From the NCBI GenBank assembly GCA_029932605.1, contig JAOZPT010000041.1, forward strand, positions 1 through 23,376: a DNA stretch of 23,376 nucleotides, given 5' to 3'. Position 1 is the first letter of the stretch; every line of letters starts with the position of its first letter. A model generated the notes under the pieces. That model saw nothing but the letters and a program-made list of their open reading frames with translations, had not been told where the DNA came from and searched no databases. This document shows, piece after piece, positions 2,089 to 19,631 of the stretch. Origin of the DNA: Candidatus Zixiibacteriota bacterium. Lineage in GTDB: Bacteria; Zixibacteria; MSB-5A5; UBA10806; 4484-95. The position numbers and the translations under genes were made by a program.

Positions 2089-3477
2089 ATGAGAACTGGA
2101 AGAATGAATAGTATATTAAGAAATGAAACCCTTAGTTTTTATCTATGTTTAGTTTTTTTACCAATATTGATTTCTATAATAATTATATTGATAAATAAAC
2201 CGATCGTGAGCTTTGTTACTTTGGGAGTAGTAATATTTATTGTAATAACATTTATTAATTTTGATTTGTTGATTTATATTTTATTAGCATTATGGCCAAT
2301 AGTTAGTTATTATATTCCTAAAGAAAGCACAAAATATTTCTGGATAATTATTTGTTTGTTTTTTTTGATAATGTTATTATCAAAGTTAATGACAAATAGA
2401 CGGTTAAGGCTTCCGCCAAAAGAACTATTATATTTTTTTGGAGTTTTTTGGTTATTAATAATTTTTTCTGATGTTTATAATTTACAGAATATAAGTCTAA
2501 TAGATAACTTAAGATTAATTTTTTTTACTGTTCTTATATTTATATTCTATGATTGGAGTTTTAACAAACCTCCGTCAAGGATAATCTTATGTATACTATT
2601 TCCTTTAATAATTTCAATAATAATGGTGTTAGTAACTATATTAAAAAACTTTAGTTTAATGGGTTTTTTACAATTAACTTTTTTTAGATATAGTGCTTTT
2701 TTTGGTAATCCTAATAATTATGGCAATTATCTAAATTTTGTTATTCCATTGATATTTTCATTCTTGGTGATGAAGTATTATAAAAGGTATTATTATATAA
2801 TCTTGTTTATATTTATTTTGTCATTTTTAGCCTTGATAATATCAAACTCAAGAGCTGCTTATCTGGGAGTGGGCTCTTCGATTATTATATTATCTTTGCT
2901 GATTAAGAGGATAAGACTTCCTGTATTGATATTCCTTGGTTTACTAATATTTGTTTTTATTTATTCACCGTTTTTTCGACAAATAACAAATTTTATTTTA
3001 AGAATTGGAACTGATCCTACTTCTGGAAGAGCAGATATCTGGGCTTCAGCTATGAGTATATTAAGGAATAATTATATTTTCGGTATTGGCCTTGGAAATC
3101 AGACATGTTATTTGGTTGAAGAATTACCTACAGCTTTCTCAAAACACATTATGGGGAATATAATGGGAGCTCACAATTTATATTTGAGTAAGGCCCTTGA
3201 AATTGGTATATTAGCAATACCATTGTTTTTATATTTATTTTTCATCCTTGGAAGAATTATCATTTTTAATACAAGATCAAAGCTTCCTTTAGAACAAAGG
3301 GCTTTAAACTTTGCTGCGTTAGGAGTTTTAATATCCTTGTTTGTAAGGTCCTTCTTTGAGGGTTCCGTTCTGATTCAACGAGGTGGTATATTTCCAGTAT
3401 TTTATTCGTGGATTATTCTGTCTTGGCCAATGCAAATTCATCAGAAAATCAGGAAATACAAGTCTACTACCAAATAA
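2089..3477 (+). CDS. O-antigen ligase / Wzy_C-family polytopic membrane protein
   Basis: Many hydrophobic segments, with family motifs RYSAFFGNPN, SNSRAAYL, SGRADIW, GIGLGN and AHNLYL. The start could instead be the ATG at 2104. Confidence 0.85.
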   Translation: MRTGRMNSILRNETLSFYLCLVFLPILISIIIILINKPIVSFVTLGVVIFIVITFINFDLLIYILLALWPIVSYYIPKESTKYFWIIICLFFLIMLLSKLMTNRRLRLPPKELLYFFGVFWLLIIFSDVYNLQNISLIDNLRLIFFTVLIFIFYDWSFNKPPSRIILCILFPLIISIIMVLVTILKNFSLMGFLQLTFFRYSAFFGNPNNYGNYLNFVIPLIFSFLVMKYYKRYYYIILFIFILSFLALIISNSRAAYLGVGSSIIILSLLIKRIRLPVLIFLGLLIFVFIYSPFFRQITNFILRIGTDPTSGRADIWASAMSILRNNYIFGIGLGNQTCYLVEELPTAFSKHIMGNIMGAHNLYLSKALEIGILAIPLFLYLFFILGRIIIFNTRSKLPLEQRALNFAALGVLISLFVRSFFEGSVLIQRGGIFPVFYSWIILSWPMQIHQKIRKYKSTTK

Positions 3478-3632: not shown

Positions 3633-5018
3633 ATGAAACCGAAAAGAGTTGTCATAATGGGGGCGGCAGGCAGAGATTTCCATAACTTCAACTGTGTTTT
3701 CCGCGATAACGAAATGTATGAAGTCGTGGCTTTTACTGCTACCCAGATACCCGATATCGAGGGGCGCAAATATCCTTCCAGATTGGCGGGTAAGCTTTAC
3801 CCGAAGGGGATACCGATAGTAGCCGAGGAGGAATTACCTGTTTTAATCGACCAGTATGATGTCGAAGAAGTAGTATTTTCTTATTCCGATGTTTCTTATG
3901 AGCATGTTATGTCGTTGGGGGCGGTAGTTAATGCCTGTGGCGCTGATTTCAAGATGCTGGGTGCTGGAAAGACTATGTTGAAATCCAAAAAGCCGGTAGT
4001 GGCTATATGTGCCGTAAGGACAGGTTGCGGAAAATCGCAGACTACAAGAAGAGTCTGCCGGGTGCTAAAGAGTTTTGGTTTTAAGGTTATAGTTATTCGT
4101 CACCCGATGCCCTATGGAGACCTTACAAAACAGATTTGCCAGCGTTTCGCCAGGCTTTCGGACCTTGACAAGTTCAAATGCACTATCGAGGAGCGTGAAG
4201 AATATGAACCTCATATCAACAATGGGGTTATTGTGTATGCCGGTGTCGATTACGGTGTGATTCTCGGACGGGCTGAGAAAGAGGCTGATATCATAATCTG
4301 GGATGGCGGCAACAACGATTTGCCATTTTACCAACCGGATATTCACATTACCGTATTAGATCCTCATCGTCCCAGGCATGAGCTTACCTATTATCCGGGT
4401 GAGGCAAATCTTCTGATGGCAGATGTTGCCATCATTAACAAAGTTGAGACTGCGCCTTTAAAGGGGATTGAGGAAGTAAGGGAGTCGGTGAGAATGCTAA
4501 ATCCGGAGGCTGTGGTTATCGAGGCAGCCTCTCCGATTTTCGTTGATAATCCGGAGGTCATCACCGGCAAAAAAGTGTTGGTGGTTGAAGATGGTCCGAC
4601 AATCACTCATGGCGAGATGACCTATGGGGCAGGTGTGGTTGCGGCCAATAAATATGGTGCGGTCGAGCTGGTTGATCCACGACCATTTACCGTAGCCTCT
4701 ATAACAAAAACGTATGAAAAATATCCAGAGATAGGCGCTCTTCTTCCAGCTATGGGATATGGACAGAAGCAGGTTAAGGACCTTGAGACAACCATCAATA
4801 GAACAGATGCCGAGGCGGTTGTGATTGCTACACCTATTGACCTTCGAAGGCTGATTAATATTAAAAAACCGTCCACCCGTGTCAGGTATGAACTGCAGGA
4901 GATCGGATATCCCGATATTGAGGCGGTTTTGGTGGAATATTTCGGCTTAACAATAAAAGAATCTAAAACAACAGGCAAGAAAATTTCAAAGAGATCCAGA
5001 GCCGGAAAGCGCAGGTAG
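3633..5018 (+). CDS. arcE: COG2403 P-loop enzyme (cyclic 2,3-diphosphoglycerate synthetase-like), probable arginine synthetase ArcE
   Basis: N-terminal IMGAAGRDFHNFN...VVAFTATQIP, P-loop AVRTGCGKSQT, and RHPMPYG, TIEEREEYEPH, WDGGNND, VVEDGPT and LLPAMGY motifs. Directly upstream of carbamate kinase. The family call is firm; the ArcE activity is inferred. Confidence 0.75.
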   Translation: MKPKRVVIMGAAGRDFHNFNCVFRDNEMYEVVAFTATQIPDIEGRKYPSRLAGKLYPKGIPIVAEEELPVLIDQYDVEEVVFSYSDVSYEHVMSLGAVVNACGADFKMLGAGKTMLKSKKPVVAICAVRTGCGKSQTTRRVCRVLKSFGFKVIVIRHPMPYGDLTKQICQRFARLSDLDKFKCTIEEREEYEPHINNGVIVYAGVDYGVILGRAEKEADIIIWDGGNNDLPFYQPDIHITVLDPHRPRHELTYYPGEANLLMADVAIINKVETAPLKGIEEVRESVRMLNPEAVVIEAASPIFVDNPEVITGKKVLVVEDGPTITHGEMTYGAGVVAANKYGAVELVDPRPFTVASITKTYEKYPEIGALLPAMGYGQKQVKDLETTINRTDAEAVVIATPIDLRRLINIKKPSTRVRYELQEIGYPDIEAVLVEYFGLTIKESKTTGKKISKRSRAGKRR

Positions 5019-8864: not shown

Positions 8865-9962
8865 ATGGCAATTTATGTTGATAAAAAAACCAGAGTGATC
8901 GTACAGGGCATTACTGGCCGTGATGGTTCGTTTCACAGCCGGCAGATGTTGGATTATGGGACAAATATTGTTGCTGGAGTCACACCAGGAAAAGGGGGTT
9001 CAGAGATATATGGAGTGCCGGTTTTTGATAGTATGGCTGAGGCTGTTGAAAAGACAAAAGCTAATACATCGATAATTTTTGTGCCTCCCATGTTTGCGGT
9101 TGATGCTATCTTCGAGGCGGCTCGCTCGGGGATATCACTTATTGTTTGCATAAGTGAAGGTATTCCTGCTATTGATATGGTTAAGGTGTATAATTATCTG
9201 AAGGAAAAAGGGGTAAGATTAATTGGACCTAATTGTCCGGGAATTATTTCACCGGGGATGTCGAAGGTTGGAATATTACCCGCCCAGATTTTTGCTAAAG
9301 GCCCAATCGGTGTTGTTTCACGTTCCGGTACTTTGACCTATGAAATCGTGCATAATCTAACGATTAAAGGGCTTGGGCAGTCAACATGTATCGGTATCGG
9401 TGGCGATCCTATTATCGGAACAAATTTTATTGATTGTCTGGAAGCTTTTGAAAACGACCCCGCAACCAAGGGGATAGTCCTGATAGGTGAGATAGGTGGT
9501 TCTGATGAAGAGATGGCGGCTGAATATATTAAAAGGAACGTAACGAAACCTGTAGTAGGCTTTATCGCCGGGCAGACTGCTCCGCCGGGTAAAAGGATGG
9601 GACATGCTGGAGCTATTATATCCGGAGCCTCAGGATTAGCCGAGGATAAGATCAGAGCTTTCAACGAGGTTGGAATACCGGTTGCCGAGATACCCTCGCA
9701 GATTTCTGATTTAATGGCTGAGAAGCTTGCTGAATATCAAAAGAAGTTGGCCAGGAAGAAAGCGATAGTAAAATCGAAAAAGAAAACTAAAAAAACGGCT
9801 AAAAAGAAAACAGCTAAGAAGGTGGTTAAAAAAAAGGCAAAAAAAGCCATTAAAAGAGTTACTAGAAAAACTGCAAAGAAAAAAACTGTTTCTAGAAAAT
9901 TGGTCAGGAAAAGAGCTGAGAGGAAAACTACAGCACTAAGAAAGTCGGGTAGAAGAAAATAG
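8865..9962 (+). CDS. sucD: Succinyl-CoA synthetase alpha subunit with a ~73-aa Lys/Arg-rich C-terminal extension
   Basis: Motifs [35 protein letters not shown] and the phospho-His motif RMGHAGA. The basic tail spans 9741-9959. Confidence 0.96.
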
Positions 9963-12834: not shown

Positions 12835-13236
12835 ATGGGACGAACGCTTATAATCATCAAGCCTGATGCTGTCGAACGAGACCTGATAGGCGAGATTATA
12901 TCCCGCTTTGAGAAGGCTCGTTTTATAGTTGCTGCATTGAAGATGGTCAAGTTAGATTACGACAGCGCTCGGCGTTTCTATGCAGTCCATGAAGGTAAAC
13001 CGTTTTTGGATGAGCTATGCAAGTATATGTCATCCGGACCGGTGATAACGATGGTTGTTAAATCTGACGGTGACACAGTGGAAAAAGCGAGGCAACTTAT
13101 CGGGGTAACAGATCCCGGTAAAGCTGCTGCTGGCACCATAAGGCATGATTTGGGTGTAAGTCTTACCAAAAATTCAGTTCATGCCTCCGATTCGCCGCAG
13201 AACGCTGAACAGGAAATAAATTTTTTCTTTAGTTGA
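12835..13236 (+). CDS. ndk: Nucleoside diphosphate kinase
   Basis: Motifs RTLIIIKPDAV, FYAVHEGKPF, GTIR and NSVHASDS (phospho-His). Confidence 0.96.
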   Translation: MGRTLIIIKPDAVERDLIGEIISRFEKARFIVAALKMVKLDYDSARRFYAVHEGKPFLDELCKYMSSGPVITMVVKSDGDTVEKARQLIGVTDPGKAAAGTIRHDLGVSLTKNSVHASDSPQNAEQEINFFFS

Positions 13237-14477
13237 TGGAGATTCGACTACCGTTTGGAGGGAAAGACAGGCAAGTAGATATCGATAGCCTTCCCGGAGC
13301 TTTAAGGGTTGGAGGAATATTTCGTTGTCAATTCCCCTCGCCTTTAAGTCAAAAAAGTATGGAAGATAAAATATGGGAAGGTCTTAACCATTACAAAAAG
13401 CTCTTTGACAATAAAAAAATTTTAACTGTTGTTAACGATGGTTACCGCCGGACTCCGACAGATCTGCTATTGCCGATGATCTGGGATTACGTGGAGGGTG
13501 GAGAATTTATCGTCGCCACGGGTACACACAGAAACCCATCGGGGGATGAGTTAAGGAAGATATTTGGCCCATTGCTCGATGAAGTTGAACCGAAATTGCA
13601 TATTCATAACTGTTATGATGAGACATCTTTGGTAGATATTGGCAAAACCCGATTGGGCACTCCGGTTAGATTAAACAGGGAAGTTATTGAAGCTGATGTG
13701 ATTATTGCTATTAACTCGGTTGAACCACATTTTCTTGCCGGTTTTTCTGGTGGCCGCAAATCTATTGTACCGGGACTTGCCTCATTTGATACAGTGCAGG
13801 CCAATCATCAGTTTGCCAAAGATATAAATTCCTCGTCGTTATATTTGGAAAATAATCCTCTTCATCTCGACCTTGAGGATGCAATGAGTTTTCTTGGCGA
13901 TAAAACAATTCTTGGAATTCAGTGCGTAACCGACCGGGCTGGCAGGATAATAGGCTTATTTGTGGGAACTTTAAATGAGGCATTTTTAAAAGCCTGTGAC
14001 TGTGCCAAGAAGTTTTATGTAGTTGAAGTTCCCAGGAAATTTGATATTGTCATTGCAAACTGTGAACCACCTCTTGATGTTAACCTTTACCAACTTCAGA
14101 AAGCACAGGAACATGGTAGCAGGATGGTAAAGGATGGCGGGGTGTTAATCGTTATGGGTGCCTGCAAAGAAGGTGTTGGTTCGGAGTATTTTATGAAACT
14201 GGTGGAATTTTATCCCACCCCAAAGGAGGTGTTGGAAAAGGGTATAAACGACAATTCGTTCGGGATACACAAGTTAATTAAGACCGCCCGTCAGCTGAAG
14301 TGTTTTAAAATTTACTATGTAACAATGCTCGAAGGATATTTGGTTAGAAAAGTATATTTTAAGTCTTTTAATGATGTCAATGATGCATTAAAATCAGCTT
14401 TGAGTGAAATCGGCGATAACGTTGAATTAGCTTTTTTAGAAGATGCTGGTTATACAGTACCCGAAGTAAAACATTAA
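13236..14477 (+). CDS. larA: LarA-family nickel-pincer-nucleotide-dependent 2-hydroxyacid racemase/epimerase
   Basis: Motifs NDGYRRTP, ATGTHR, EPHFLAGFSGGRKS, ANH and NLYQLQKA. The ATG at 13236 overlaps the ndk stop (TGATG). Substrate uncertain. Confidence 0.88.
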   Translation: MEIRLPFGGKDRQVDIDSLPGALRVGGIFRCQFPSPLSQKSMEDKIWEGLNHYKKLFDNKKILTVVNDGYRRTPTDLLLPMIWDYVEGGEFIVATGTHRNPSGDELRKIFGPLLDEVEPKLHIHNCYDETSLVDIGKTRLGTPVRLNREVIEADVIIAINSVEPHFLAGFSGGRKSIVPGLASFDTVQANHQFAKDINSSSLYLENNPLHLDLEDAMSFLGDKTILGIQCVTDRAGRIIGLFVGTLNEAFLKACDCAKKFYVVEVPRKFDIVIANCEPPLDVNLYQLQKAQEHGSRMVKDGGVLIVMGACKEGVGSEYFMKLVEFYPTPKEVLEKGINDNSFGIHKLIKTARQLKCFKIYYVTMLEGYLVRKVYFKSFNDVNDALKSALSEIGDNVELAFLEDAGYTVPEVKH

Positions 14478-14492: not shown

Positions 14493-15419
14493 TTGAGAAA
14501 GAAAGTAACAGTTATAGGTGCAGGGCATGTTGGTGAATGTACAGCCATGTATTTAGCCCAGAAAAATATCTGTGATATTGTTGTTATCGACATTATCGAG
14601 GATATGCCGATGGGGAAGACTTTGGATTTATCCCAGGCCGGACCGGTTGTTGGTTATGATGTTAAGCTTGAAGGGTCTAACGATTTTGAGGCGATGAGTG
14701 GTTCGGATATAGTTGTAATGACAGCTGGTTTTCCCAGAAAGCCTGGTATGAGTCGTGAGGACCTCATTAATAAAAACGCTGAAATAGTTGGTCCAGTATC
14801 GGAGAAAGTTAAAAAATACGCTCCAGATGCTATGCTGATTATGGTGACCAATCCCCTGGATATAATGACATACCATGCTTGGAAAATCACTGGTTTTCCG
14901 ACTGAAAGAGTGTTCGGTCAGGCTGGGATACTGGATTCCATACGGTTCAGAACCTTTGTGGCCTGGGAACTAGGTGTTTCTTTGTGTGATGTTCAGGCTA
15001 TGGTGCTGGGTGGTCATGGCGACACGATGGTACCACTCCCTGCCTATACTACCGTATCAGGTATTCCGATAACCGAACTTATTACCGAAGACAAGATTAA
15101 AGCGATATCTGATAGGACTCGCAATGGTGGTGGTGAGATCGTGAAATTGTTAAAGACAGGTTCGGCTTATTATGCACCGGCCGCAGCAGTTGTAGAAATG
15201 GTTGACGCAGTATTAAACGATCGTAAAAGGGTGTTTCCTGTCTCTGCCTTTGTGGATGGTTCTTATGGTATTAAAGGTATTTATATAGGAGTTCCTGTAA
15301 TTTTGGGTTCCGGCGGCGTAGAAAAAATATTTGAGTTAAAACTTAATCCTGATGACATGGCCTCTTTGCAAAATTCGGCAAAAACTTACAAAGAATGGTT
15401 AGGAGTGCTGGGTTATTAG
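14493..15419 (+). CDS. mdh: Malate dehydrogenase (LDH-like fold)
   Basis: GAGHVG; AGFPRKPGMSR with Arg at the specificity position (LDH has Gln); VTNPLD; LGGHGD. TTG start preceded by AAGGAG. Confidence 0.93.
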   Translation: MRKKVTVIGAGHVGECTAMYLAQKNICDIVVIDIIEDMPMGKTLDLSQAGPVVGYDVKLEGSNDFEAMSGSDIVVMTAGFPRKPGMSREDLINKNAEIVGPVSEKVKKYAPDAMLIMVTNPLDIMTYHAWKITGFPTERVFGQAGILDSIRFRTFVAWELGVSLCDVQAMVLGGHGDTMVPLPAYTTVSGIPITELITEDKIKAISDRTRNGGGEIVKLLKTGSAYYAPAAAVVEMVDAVLNDRKRVFPVSAFVDGSYGIKGIYIGVPVILGSGGVEKIFELKLNPDDMASLQNSAKTYKEWLGVLGY

Positions 15420-15472: not shown

Positions 15473-17182
15473 ATGGGGAAAACCATAGCTGAAAAAATAT
15501 TTTGTGAGCATGTGGGTAGGGATGTGAAGGCTGGAGAGATAGTGGTTGCTGATATCGACGTCAGCCTTGTTCAAGATGGCACGGGACCTCTGGCTGTTCG
15601 CCAGCTTGAGAAACTCGAATTGGAGAAGCTGGCAAAGCCGGAGCGAACAGTGCTTTTCCTTGACCATTCTGCTCCGGCATCACGTAAGGAATTGGCAAAC
15701 GACCATGATACCTTACGCAATTTCGCAAAAAAAACCGGAGCCCGGCTTTCGGAAGTTGGAATGGGGATTTGTCATACCGTAATCAACGAAATCTATGTCA
15801 ATCCCGGTGATATTTTAATCGGAGCTGATAGCCATACATGCACAGGCGGAGCTTTATGCGCTTTCTCAACTGGTATGGGTTCAACAGATGTGGCCATTGG
15901 AATGGCGTTGGGTAAGACCTGGTTTCGAGTACCTGAAACTTTCAAGGTTTTTGTGACCGGTGAATTTCCTGTTGGCGTATTTGCCAAGGACCTTATTTTG
16001 CATTTAATCGGTCTTATTGGCGCTGATGGAGCAACTTATAAGGCTTTGGAGTTCTGTGGCCCTGCAATTGAGAATATGAGCATGGAATCACGTTTCACTA
16101 TTTCGAATATGGCGGTGGAGGCAGGTGCAAAAGCCGGATTGATTGCATCGGATGAAACGACAAAAAAATATTTGGAGAAAATGGGACGTGGCTCTAAATG
16201 GCGTCCTATCGCGGCGGATGATGATGCTGAATATGAACGGGTTATCGAGATCGATGTTTCATATCTTAAACCGATGGTTTCGTTTCCACATACGGTAGAT
16301 AATACTCGAACAATCGAAGAGGCTGCTGGTGTTGTGATAAATCAGGTTTTTTTAGGGACCTGCACAAATTCCCGTCTTGAGGACTGGGATGTCGTTAGCC
16401 GGATAGTGAAAGGTAAAAGGAAGGCACCGGGTATTCGGTTTATTGCGGTTCCTGGTTCAAAATATGTCGAAAAACAGGTGATGGATGCGGGCTATTATCA
16501 GATACTTGCTGAGTTTGGGGCGATGTTTTTGCCTCCTGGATGTGGTCCCTGTGTAGGCGTCCATGGTGGGGTACCGGCTGATGGAGAAAAATCGCTTACA
16601 ACAATGAACCGCAATTTCCGTGGCCGAATGGGAAATCCCAAAGGTGAAATCTATTTGGCATCACCTGCGACTGTTGCCGCCACCGCTATCGAAGGGGTTA
16701 TTGCAGATCCCCGTAAGTATGCTCGAGAGTTAACATCTAAATCATTTCCGACAATTGTAAACACTGAGGCTTTGAAGAGGGCTACTGTAATGGCTATGGA
16801 ATCGATTGAAAAAGTAGCCACTGAAACTGCCAGGAAGCTTGGCCCACGAGTTAAAGAGACCTCTGAAATTGTTGAAAAAAAGACCAGAGGAGTAATCAGA
16901 AAATATGAGCCTAAGGCCCAAAAAGCGGCAGTGGATCTTGAGAAAACGATTAGGACATTAGCAAAGGATGCCTCCAAGGCTATCAAGGAGGTCTTAACCG
17001 GTAAACCTGCTGTAAAAACTTCTCGAACCGTGAAGAAAAAAGTTGGAAAGAAATCTAAGACTGGAGTAGTTACTAAGAAGACTGTGAAGAAAAAAGCCAC
17101 TAAGAAGGTTTCAAAAAAAGGCGTCAAAAAAACAGCAAGGGGAAAAACTGTTAAAACCGTTTCTAAAAAGAGGAGGAGATAA
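15473..17182 (+). CDS. LeuC/HacA-family [4Fe-4S] hydro-lyase large subunit (candidate aconitase) with a 153-aa C-terminal extension
   Basis: Motifs MGKTIAEKIF, QDGTGP, LDH, GADSHT, GTCTN, PGCGPC, NRNFRGRMG and ASPA...DPR. GGAGG at 15464-15468 supports a start at 15473 rather than 15395. Confidence 0.9.
   Translation: MGKTIAEKIFCEHVGRDVKAGEIVVADIDVSLVQDGTGPLAVRQLEKLELEKLAKPERTVLFLDHSAPASRKELANDHDTLRNFAKKTGARLSEVGMGICHTVINEIYVNPGDILIGADSHTCTGGALCAFSTGMGSTDVAIGMALGKTWFRVPETFKVFVTGEFPVGVFAKDLILHLIGLIGADGATYKALEFCGPAIENMSMESRFTISNMAVEAGAKAGLIASDETTKKYLEKMGRGSKWRPIAADDDAEYERVIEIDVSYLKPMVSFPHTVDNTRTIEEAAGVVINQVFLGTCTNSRLEDWDVVSRIVKGKRKAPGIRFIAVPGSKYVEKQVMDAGYYQILAEFGAMFLPPGCGPCVGVHGGVPADGEKSLTTMNRNFRGRMGNPKGEIYLASPATVAATAIEGVIADPRKYARELTSKSFPTIVNTEALKRATVMAMESIEKVATETARKLGPRVKETSEIVEKKTRGVIRKYEPKAQKAAVDLEKTIRTLAKDASKAIKEVLTGKPAVKTSRTVKKKVGKKSKTGVVTKKTVKKKATKKVSKKGVKKTARGKTVKTVSKKRRR
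16802..16999 (+). repeat. Three degenerate 22-aa helical repeats in the LeuC-like extension
   Basis: SIEKVATETARKLGPRVKETSE / IVEKKTRGVIRKYEPKAQKAAV / DLEKTIRTLAKDASKAIKEVLT. The hydrophobic-E-K is in register in all three, and RKxxP is in register in the first two. Confidence 0.65.
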
Positions 17183-17185
17183 GCC

Positions 17186-17686
17186 ATGGCATTATGTGGA
17201 AAAGCGTTCAAGTTTGGCGATGATATCTCCACTGACCATATCGCTCCGGGAAGGTATTTCCACTTAAGATCGAATTTGCCTGAACTGGCCAAGCATGTTC
17301 TTGAGGATGCTGATGAGACATTTGCCACAAGGGTGAAACCGGGAGATTTTGTCGTTGGTGGTAAAAATTTTGGTCTTGGCTCTTCCCGTGAACATGCACC
17401 AACCATTATTAAGCTGGCGGGCGTTGGAGCGGTTCTGGCCAAGTCGTTTGCCCGGATATTTTTTCGTAATGCTATCAATGTCGGCTTGCCGGTTTTGATC
17501 TGTGATACGGACCGTATTTGCGATGGTGATGAACTTGAGGTTGACCTTGAGGCCGGTTTAATTAAGGATAAAACAAACGATATCGAGCTTTCGTTTACGC
17601 CCCTTCCAAAGACTATGGTGACTATTCTCGAGGATGGTGGGCTTGTGGCTCATATTCAGAAACACGGGGATTTCAAACTCGATTAA
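17186..17686 (+). CDS. LeuD/HacB-family hydro-lyase small subunit
   Basis: Motifs FGDDISTDHIAPGRY, NFGLGSSREHA and SFARIFFRNAINVGL. Confidence 0.92.
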   Translation: MALCGKAFKFGDDISTDHIAPGRYFHLRSNLPELAKHVLEDADETFATRVKPGDFVVGGKNFGLGSSREHAPTIIKLAGVGAVLAKSFARIFFRNAINVGLPVLICDTDRICDGDELEVDLEAGLIKDKTNDIELSFTPLPKTMVTILEDGGLVAHIQKHGDFKLD

Positions 17687-17784
17687 GATGTTTGTGCAGT
17701 GCAAGAATCATTTATATGGCATTGAAAAATATGAAGAGAGCCATAATAGCAAGCTATGTGTAAGACAAATTGAGGATATTTTAA

Positions 17785-18375
17785 ATGTCTAAAGTCTCCA
17801 AAAATTCGATACTGGGTCTGGTAATAGTATTTTTTGGTTTTATTTTATTATTTGATTCGCTTGGTTATGTTGAGTTTGATTTTTGGAGATTGATAGATAA
17901 ACTTTGGCCTTTAGTGTTAATAATAATCGGTCTGATAGTTATTTTCAAAAGCAGAGAAAGGGCCGAATCCGAATCATTATCGGTCGAGTTGAATTCCTCT
18001 GATTATAGCGGTTCTACATTATTTGGTGATATCCGAGTTGCCGGCATATCTAAAGATGTGGGAAAGATAGACCGGTCTTTGCTATTTGGCGACATCGTTA
18101 TCGATCTGTCCGGTTCTAAGTTGAAGGATGGTAATAATTATGTCAAAGCCTCGGTGATATTCGGCGATGTAGATGTGATAGTACCTGCTGATTTCCCGGT
18201 TTGTATGGATCTAGGTTGCATCGCCGGGTCAGTTTCGTATGGCGCCAAAAAATCTGATGGTTTAATGCCGAGAATTAGATACACCGATACCGATTTTGAT
18301 AACACGCCGGCCAAGCTTTATATTAAGGCCAACACGACTTTTGGTGATATAAGAGTAGTAAAGTCTGAAAAGTAA
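17785..18375 (+). CDS. LiaF-like membrane protein (N-terminal TM hairpin plus DUF2154-like beta-repeat domain)
   Basis: GLVIVFFG...[11 protein letters not shown]-terminus and repeated (L/I/T)FGD(I/V) strands. Confidence 0.75.
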
Positions 18376-18386
18376 AAGGAGAGACG

Positions 18387-19631
18387 ATGGCAAAATATAA
18401 GATGATTACACCCCCGACAAATGGCACACCGATAACGATCGTGGATAAAAAACTTAAAGTGCCGGACAACCCTATAATCCCGGTTATCGAGGGAGATGGA
18501 ATTGGTAGTGATATCATGAAGGCCTGTCGGCGTGTGGTTGATGCTGCTATAGAGAAAACTTATAATGGTAGAAAACAGATTGTCTGGTTTGATATATATG
18601 CCGGTGATGCAGCTTTGAAAATGTATGGCGAGGTTTTGCCACGAGATACATTTAAGGCAATAAAAGAGTTTATTGTTGCTCTCAAAGGTCCTCTTACAAC
18701 TCCTGTAGGGGGAGGTTATCGCTCGTTAAATGTCACTTTGCGACAGGCGCTAAACCTTTATGCCTGCGTAAGGCCGGTACGTTATTTCCAGGGTGTGCCC
18801 TCACCGGTAAAACATCCAGAGAAACTCAATGTGGTCATTTTCCGTGAGAACACCGAGGATGTTTATGCTGGTATTGAGTGGCCCAAAGGGACCAAGGAGG
18901 TTAAGAAAGTAATTGATTTTTTGAACAAAAGAATGAAGACCAAAATCCGTGCTGATTCTGGCATTGGCATAAAACCAATATCTGTAACAGGTACACAGCG
19001 TCTTGTCAGCAAAGCTATCCGCTATGCATTGGATAACGGGCGCAGGTCTGTTACCCTTGTCCATAAGGGTAACATTATGAAGTATACAGAGGGGGCTTTT
19101 CGGGATTGGGGATATAAAATCGCTGCTAAAAGATTCCCTGATGAAACCATTTCAGAAGCCGAAATCTGGGACAAATATAATGGCAAGTGTCCTGATGGTA
19201 AGGTTATTATCAAGGACCGTATTGCCGATTCAATGTTCCAGCAGATTCTCACACGTTCGGATGAGTATGATATTATAGCTACTCCTAATTTAAATGGCGA
19301 TTACCTCTCGGATGCATGTGCTGCCCAGGTCGGTGGGCTGGGTATGGCTCCTGGAGGTAATATCGGTGACTATGTGGGGCTTTTCGAGGCGACTCATGGA
19401 ACTGCTCCAAAATATGCTGGTAAAGATATGGTCAACCCGAGCTCACTTATACTTTCAGCGGTGATGATGCTTAATTATCTTGGCTGGAAGGAGGCTGGTT
19501 TGGCTATCGAGAAGGCCATTGAAAAAACCATCCTGCAAAAGACAGTGACGTATGATCTCGAGCGACTTATGGAGGGTGCAACTAAGGTCTCAACCTCGCA
19601 GTATGCCACGCATATCATCGAGAACCTGTGA
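18387..19631 (+). CDS. icd: NADP-dependent isocitrate dehydrogenase (E. coli type)
   Basis: Motifs [38 protein letters not shown] and [13 protein letters not shown] determinants in HGTAPKYAG and TYDLER. Confidence 0.96.

Follow-up and report, generated by a model that had tools for sequence, protein, structure and literature searches.

In the 23,376-nucleotide stretch of Candidatus Zixiibacteriota bacterium analysed here (assembly GCA_029932605.1, contig JAOZPT010000041.1, positions 1 to 23,376, forward strand; hereafter the window), a gene of 569 codons at 15473..17182 (+) encodes the large subunit of a LeuC/HacA-family hydro-lyase with a 153-residue C-terminal extension, as read from its open reading frame translation and family hidden Markov models (HMMs). 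Our preferred reading, to which we assign a probability of roughly 0.45, is that the gene encodes a bifunctional aconitase in which the extension would supply a helix for a lipid surface and a tail for binding polyanions. In the proposed mechanism, the core would interconvert as an aconitase, an activity that we infer, while a hinged 11/3 helix would lie on a membrane or lipid inclusion, behaving like an exchangeable apolipoprotein that is loosely self-associated in solution and opens flat on lipid, with two conserved prolines as its hinges. The disordered lysine tail, together with the outward Lys/Arg of the helix, would bind DNA or RNA non-specifically, as polyanions, so that the protein would also link a lipid surface with the nucleoid, a second function that does not depend on catalysis.

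Family models stop at residue 414-415 of the large subunit. The 153 residues that the initial annotation had counted beyond the DPRKY motif are present as described, and divide into a 94-residue segment followed by a 59-residue tail. A short connector (residues 417-429, 16721..16759 (+)) contains the nearly invariant E419 and L420 and has a similar start in orthologues that carry a tail without the helix. It leads into what the hydrophobic moment, the alignment and AlphaFold indicate to be a continuous 11/3 amphipathic helix with an Ala/Val-rich face (residues 430-509, 16760..16999 (+)). The tail starts at K511 (17003..17179 (+)); rich in Lys, Arg, Val and Thr, it has 28 Lys/Arg in its 59 residues and, as also claimed initially, no Asp/Glu, within an acid-free run of 63 residues, and it is predicted to be disordered at a predicted local distance difference test (pLDDT) of 33-39. 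Prolines at 426, 458, 480 and 512 give the reported spacings of 32, 22 and 32. The three in-register 22-mers fared less well: they are contiguous within the helix (residues 444-465, 466-487 and 488-509; 16802-16867, 16868-16933 and 16934-16999 (+)), but their mutual identity is just 3-5 of 22 and the third has no proline, and they are a periodic pattern, not a sequence repeat. That periodicity shows in the BLOSUM autocorrelation, where, of the 38 lags tested, lag 11 has a peak of z 3.3 (p 0.0005) and lag 22 one of z 3.1 (p 0.0015).

The fusion is real, given that independent contigs cross the junction ungapped. Four sequencing runs, from hydrothermal-vent and sediment metagenomes, were compared: contig record 1 of run X1, possibly the source of this DNA, covers 16300-17700 with two substitutions and no gap, and a contig of run X3 covers 16610-17700 across the junction without a gap. 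Metagenome locus L163 is likewise continuous, with a 94-residue segment 100% identical to the one here, and 17 other genomes have the segment within this gene, two of them with a broken or split assembly. The probability that a separate gene was joined on by a sequencing or assembly error is accordingly vanishingly small, and we regard that explanation as refuted. M440 and M442 could pass for internal starts in this one sequence, but these positions are Ser and Gln in most orthologues, and on the same ground we rejected the idea that a helix-tail protein is made on its own from a conserved internal start; moreover, 66 of the 67 longer database proteins that match a profile of the segment also carry PF00330, the remaining one being a fragment that ends in the same core.

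Over the alignment, the moment of the segment is 0.49 at 98.0 degrees vs 0.08 at the heptad angle of 102.9 degrees, so the amphipathic helix expected by the initial annotation stands up to computation, and the segment has the signature of a true 11/3 amphipathic helix rather than of a heptad coiled coil. The peak in the sequence itself, at 98-99 degrees, was matched by 0 of 1000 shuffles. The segment also has the strongest 11/3 moment among the 1907 open reading frames of at least 150 amino acids in the genome, a rank that is favoured by the 79-residue scanning window, whose length was picked on this very segment. At 98.2 degrees, none of the 63 aligned sequences places Lys, Arg, Asp or Glu within 60 degrees of the face (0%), which has large hydrophobic residues in the centre and alanines flanking them, with a mean moment per helix of 0.37-0.49. 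AlphaFold places helices at 431-455 and 463-508 with a pLDDT of about 45-63. A fold search with the AlphaFold monomer returned aconitase-family structures and otherwise weak, unrelated matches, and an ESM Atlas search with residues 417-512 gave nothing usable.

Conservation and length together point to what is being maintained. P458 and Y478 are present in 63 of 63 aligned segments, P480 in 62 and P426 in 31, with helix kinks at P458 and at Y478-x-P480. The segment is 94 residues long in 63 of 70 proteins; the seven variants differ by +37 (P0043), +74 (P0042), +111 (P0039-41) or -4 residues (P0094, P0096). Among the genomes, the G009 segment is 26 residues longer, and G012 has 37-residue units across a contig break. 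In the five length variants computed, the moment peak is kept at 97.3-97.8 degrees. Given that the indels, of 11n+4 or 4 residues, add or remove whole turns, a single unbroken face seems to be selected while its length is free. Added units each carry their own prolines, at spacings of 22 and 15. The 37-residue series is probably one lineage, hence about three independent length events. This fixed phase, free length and repeated prolines favour a protein that binds a surface over one with a fixed fold. The tail varies from 27 to 101 residues in orthologues.

An argument for a role beyond catalysis comes from a lineage in which the enzyme has decayed. The Fe-S cysteines C297, C357 and C360 and the DH, DSH and NRNF motifs are all intact in the core described here. 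In genome G009, of the same family, the locus no longer has a small-subunit gene (elsewhere, matches reach 49% identity at best vs 78-85% among orthologues), and the large subunit has lost the His of DH and the Ser of DSH, with the cysteines kept and the helix enlarged. None of the three cysteines is left in the full-length protein P0011 or in the fragment P0010, both of which retain the helix. Measured against the intact G008, the cores of G009, P0011 and P0010 are 51-72% identical and their helices 57-70%, while the active family members stand at 75-86% and 59-69%, respectively. G009 and P0011 group together in the tree with 100/98 support, P0011 on a long branch. Because cores decayed while helices stayed as conserved as in active members, selection on the helix appears to be independent of catalysis and to continue once catalysis is lost.

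These patterns also bear on the idea that the extension is tolerated low-complexity growth, or an LEA-type solubility or chaperone-like appendage with no specific ligand, which we rate as very improbable. It would fit the basic tails on many unrelated proteins, the SucD tail that ranges from 5 to 179 amino acids, the five family members that do without the gene, and a helix that evolves faster than the active core (38-49% vs 72-75% identity between families). It would not explain a segment of exactly 94 residues in nine proteins out of ten, invariant Pro, Tyr and Leu, indels that are exclusively phase-preserving, or the conservation of the helix where the core decays.

Several observations weigh against a lipid-surface helix on a bifunctional enzyme. 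Class A helices have Lys/Arg at the lipid-water interface and Asp/Glu in the middle of the polar face; here Lys/Arg occupy the mid-polar face, making up 35-45% of the residues at 120-180 degrees, and Asp/Glu peak at 90-120 degrees. Mean hydrophobicity is low, at 0 to 0.25 in 18-residue windows over 444-509, and the near-invariant polar positions E419, K435, E446, E490 and K505 would suit protein contacts. Resemblance to apolipoproteins is a matter of pattern and not of descent, because unrelated 11-mer proteins (flea, cnidarian, actinobacterial, HEAT) score equally well or better on the apolipoprotein model. At the locus, the large- and small-subunit pair is intact in G000 (the present genome), G001, G004 and G008 of the family and cleanly absent in G002, G003, G005, G006 and G007, so the gene is dispensable. 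The dead form is rare, confined to one clade and a fragment, with 53 of 54 full-length helix-bearing proteins keeping all six motifs. As for storage polymers, polyhydroxyalkanoate (PHA) synthase, which the initial annotation had suggested looking for, was not found (PhaC_N matched none of 10 family genomes and TIGR01836 none of 24 order genomes, with Caulobacter controls matched), and PPK1, PPK2 and BMC were not found in this 99.96% complete genome, the controls again giving matches. The phasin-family gene considered below also occurs in the five genomes without the pair and is thus not co-distributed with it.

Some of the same evidence would serve a right-handed hendecad/pentadecad coiled-coil stalk without lipid contact, whose oligomers, with a basic surface and several lysine tails, would act as an H1-like nucleoid or condensate protein. 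We consider this somewhat unlikely, though it is the main rival to our reading. An 11/3 periodicity with 15-residue inserts is right-handed coiled-coil geometry, and the inserts here can be written as 37 = 22+15 and 26 = 11+15. Acids beside the face and bases pointing outward would fit as well, with conserved glutamates that could make salt bridges, as would the lack of any storage-polymer synthase found and the weak NCBIfam matches that include coiled proteins (Tim44 in 8 of 15 members, UbiK in 5 of 15). Against a stalk stand the small core (Ala 23%) and the near-invariant prolines that recur at intervals of 15 or 22 residues and are duplicated along with every repeat unit; such prolines are unusual in long coiled coils and typical of apolipoprotein-type arrays. 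A two-copy structure prediction of residues 425-512 from a 65-row alignment scored 0.04 and 0.01, below the mark of 0.42, values with no bearing on pairing. The lipid-surface and coiled-coil readings can coexist.

A lipid body that the helix could target possibly exists in these organisms. A phasin-family gene (PF05597) matches in 23 of 24 order genomes, 16 of them over the cut-off, and the three relatives scanned have it joined to PHB_acc_N, the DNA-binding domain of PhaR. It is flanked by a TPM-domain gene on one side and, in most of the loci read, by an ABC1 kinase gene on the other (G000:C10:38302-38595; L190, L191, L192-L201), and in the genome studied here it adjoins the ABC1 kinase. Cyanobacterial lipid droplets include ABC1 kinases among their components, according to the accessible part of PMC12223511. 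The phasin-family gene may be the sign of a lipid body of a kind not yet described, without PHA and linked to DNA; it is no proof of one. WS/DGAT, the wax-ester/triacylglycerol synthase, matched in 0 of 24 order genomes, and no control genome gave a match either. A link to polyphosphate or to microcompartments was rejected, PPK1, PPK2 and BMC not having been found.

Helix and tail differ in their distribution. A profile built on the 94-residue segment and searched in 285 genomes of the phylum matches 18, all in the same order (18 of 24 there, 0 of 261 elsewhere), namely the genome itself, 4 of 9 others in its family and 13 of 14 in a second family. Among 80 homologous loci from a genome collection, 69 stop at most about 7 residues from the family end; of the others, 8 are cut or unreadable, two have short lysine tails, and one (L072, the same protein as in G004) has the full extension. 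Close database homologues of the large subunit bear the source label candidate division Zixibacteria. A 1.84-billion search with the segment gave 22 matches, 8 to this family (several of them fragments) and 14 to unrelated 11-mer proteins. As for a stand-alone helix-tail form, the short matches P0007, P0012 and P0013, from the profile search of genomes and the 1.84-billion search, neither aimed at shorter proteins, look fragmentary. The fusion is not described in the literature found on Zixibacteria aconitase or lysine-rich tails, a scope outside which most subscription journals and supplements lie.

Class-level orthologues without the helix carry lysine tails of 21-114 residues (G024, G025, G029, G033, G034, G038). 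In a midpoint-rooted tree of 47 rows selected from the loci, forms with a long tail or the helix make up a clade supported at 100/100, from which short-tail forms are excluded; the first fork of that clade (between the two helix families and one tail-only clade) is not resolved, nor is a single origin of the helix. The topology suggests that the tail likely came first and the helix later, and the tail looks like an older, lineage-wide part, to which the helix would have been added within the order by growth from the A/K-rich start of the tail.

Lysine tails are not special to the large subunit. SucD, encoded in the same cluster of the window (8865..9962 (+)), has its own 78-residue Lys-rich tail (about 9726-9959) without an amphipathic helix, and of the 30 loci read throughout the class (L111-L140), 27 have a basic SucD tail of 17-179 residues. 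In the same genome, whose GC content is 41%, basic tails occur on PPDK and ribosomal protein S1 (both N-terminal), inositol-phosphate synthase, a SWIB protein, a DUF2934 protein and a small Cys-rich protein; these further genes were read on contigs C12, C35, C58, C53, C45 and C36 (L172-L177). Given the tails on SucD, PPDK and others, and the tail-only orthologues, the tail appears to be a habit of the lineage and the helix specific to the order. The tail described here, acid-free, K-rich, low-complexity and with a pLDDT under 40, has the features of H1-like lysine repeats. Lys-rich low-complexity regions are reported to be enriched among DNA-binding proteins in the available part of PMC6821194. 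Within the window, a basic tail was also seen on a 461-amino-acid P-loop protein (3633-5018). Outside the phylum, the large subunit of a WOR-3 genome (L001:11363-12661) has a short lysine tail, and a downstream gene of 433 amino acids (L001:8001-9293) starts Lys-rich; the habit may extend beyond Zixibacteria. An antisense Phe-rich open reading frame at 16651-17478 was dismissed as a shadow of the lysine codons, as was its like at SucD.

A bolder joint reading, which we think unlikely as a whole, would make this a tricarboxylic acid (TCA) cycle enzyme turned lipid-surface-to-nucleoid bridge, with catalysis dropped in one lineage, and one of a Zixibacteria-wide set of Lys-tailed enzymes gathered at the nucleoid beside a non-PHA lipid body. 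Aconitase, SucD, PPDK and inositol-phosphate synthase would form that set, and the lipid body would be an undescribed one marked by the PhaR-DNA-binding-domain/phasin fusion and ABC1 kinase. Whatever its role there, the habit of placing histone-H1-like tails on central-metabolism enzymes is a wider, unexplained feature of Zixibacteria.

The catalytic core (residues 1-416, 15473..16720 (+)) is likely an aconitase large subunit, judging from HMMs, the closest structure and motifs. Over residues 3-414 it exceeds the cut-offs of NF001614 (552 vs 385), TIGR01343 (540 vs 386) and TIGR02086 (520 vs 410), and it does not reach those of the equivalog models LEU2 and HacA_Meth. The cognate small subunit, of LeuD/HacB type (17186..17686 (+)), begins 3 nucleotides past the stop codon, exceeds the TIGR02087 cut-off and has a conserved loop motif. 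The pair sits in a cluster with sucC, sucD, subunits of a 2-oxoacid:ferredoxin oxidoreductase, ndk, a LarA-like gene, mdh, a LiaF-like gene and the NADP-dependent icd. Its upstream neighbour is malate dehydrogenase (14493..15419 (+), over the TIGR01763 cut-off), and NADP isocitrate dehydrogenase lies downstream (18387..19631 (+), over the TIGR00183 cut-off). The genome encodes citrate synthase, and no HMGL-like gene (LeuA/homocitrate synthase) was found in it, with 14 of 14 controls giving a match. Given the mdh and icd flanks, the presence of citrate synthase and the lack of an HMGL-like synthase found, the pair is likely a TCA aconitase rather than a leucine or lysine enzyme.

Such a neighbourhood raises the question of whether the helix is instead a docking arm for Icd, Mdh, the small subunit or the LiaF-like membrane protein, building a TCA metabolon to which the tail would be incidental. 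This we consider quite improbable. The invariant Y478 and polar residues, the strongly conserved gene order from mdh through the pair and the liaF-like gene to icd, and the persistence of dead copies in the cluster all suit it, but up to three extra 37-residue units are tolerated, the G009 helix is kept without a small subunit, and the LiaF-like gene adjoins a helix-less orthologue (G024) and occurs in genomes without the pair. We rejected a link with this LiaF-like neighbour, the two being distributed differently; across the order, that gene (17785-18375) is retained just upstream of icd, including where the pair is deleted, alone or together with mdh.

Other genes came to attention in passing. 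The lactate racemase (LarA)-like gene at 13233-14477 is conserved in the TCA cluster directly upstream of mdh, and its product might use malate or a related 2-hydroxy acid as substrate. A multi-pass membrane gene at 2089-3477, with a GC content of 21-30% vs 40-47% in its neighbours, was possibly acquired. Elsewhere in the genome (G000:C3, L179:2883-6274), a fused 660-amino-acid aconitase-family gene exceeds the TIGR00139 homoaconitase cut-off and adjoins an MmgE/PrpD gene; similar genes occur in 3 of the 5 genomes without the pair, where they may replace it. A LeuC-like paralogue of 533 amino acids (P0099; G000:C53, L180:2579-4177 (-)) has altered active-site motifs and an N-terminal addition of about 115 residues, which to the eye resembles tandem helix-turn-helix units and has no Pfam match. 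Open reading frames of similar length and 34-41% identity occur in many Zixibacteria, and P0099 is possibly an Fe-S or citrate-sensing regulator.

Among known systems, the exchangeable apolipoproteins A-I and A-IV (PF01442, 3s84) share with the segment the 11/3 periodicity, the 22-residue proline spacing and a similar junction pattern. PF01442 was the commonest weak Pfam match (11 of 15 members; best E 7e-4, 14.7 bits vs a cut-off of 90), and apoA-IV topped a PDB profile search (E 0.034). In contrast to apolipoproteins, however, the segment falls far under the Pfam cut-off, has a weak Ala-rich face, non-class-A charges and a 22+15 repeat unit, and is cytoplasmic and fused to an enzyme. The periodicity of the apolipoprotein-type, proline-punctuated helix proposed initially holds, with weak matches to apolipoproteins, and the likeness is probably convergent. 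A HEAT-repeat reading, from one match (P0020), was rejected because the hydrophobic phase continues through the prolines.

Closer in layout are mycobacterial HBHA and Rhodococcus TadA/MLDS. As described in the available part of PMC6176652, the coiled region of HBHA has its best HMM match to apolipoprotein A1/A4/E and is followed by a Lys-rich C-terminal tail, and for its homologue MLDS, binding of DNA to lipid inclusions has been reported. The arrangement of an apolipoprotein-matching helical region before a Lys-rich tail recurs here with weak scores only. Unlike in those proteins, as far as that source describes them, the module is fused to a 416-residue Fe-S hydro-lyase core and has no N-terminal hydrophobic stretch, and its tail is rich in K/V/T/R instead of K/A/P. 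No HBHA-named protein was among the profile-match names seen, a comparison of names and not a direct HBHA alignment. Pseudomonas PhaF combines an amphipathic helical part with a basic H1-like tail and is alike in layout alone: PF05597 is not among the Pfam matches listed for the segment, and no PHA synthase was found. Aligned by hhalign to the phasin of its own genome, the segment gave a probability of 1.2%, and the phasin model TIGR01985 matched 1 of 15 members (E 0.083), which argues that the segment is not a phasin. Of the PhaF/HBHA-like anchor proposed in the initial annotation, the layout is what holds, with the best HMM match shared with HBHA; the extension resembles HBHA, MLDS and PhaF in layout while being a member of none. 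If the lipid-surface reading is true, an HBHA/PhaF-like bridge has arisen independently on a metabolic enzyme, in organisms without a known storage polymer.

The two-subunit aconitase-superfamily architecture is shared with the Methanocaldococcus isopropylmalate isomerase MJ0499/MJ1277 and homoaconitase MJ1003/MJ1271 (4kp1, 4nqy, 4kp2). The core is 40-43% identical to these structures (TM 0.92 over the core), and MJ0499 (4kp1/4nqy) is its closest solved structure; the Methanocaldococcus enzymes stop at the DPR motif, whereas here an extension follows, in a TCA cluster and with no LeuA-type synthase found. Low-complexity lysine tails are known from Streptomyces TopA, HupS and Ku, where they bind DNA, the lysine repeats of TopA being required for it, according to the part of PMC5714199 available; those are DNA-processing proteins of GC-rich genomes, whereas here enzymes of central metabolism carry the tails and the genome has a GC content of 41%. 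The natural series of orthologues, with zero to three extra repeats, with a tail alone or with a dead enzyme, is well suited to testing what the helix binds. Finally, yeast Aco1 protects and stabilises mitochondrial DNA without its Fe-S cluster (PMC7463775), a nucleoid role of an aconitase independent of the cluster like the one proposed here, and the accessible part of that source describes no such tail or helix in it. If our reading is correct, the Zixibacteria protein would be a bacterial parallel to this role of Aco1, achieved through a visible add-on module and not hidden in the enzyme fold.

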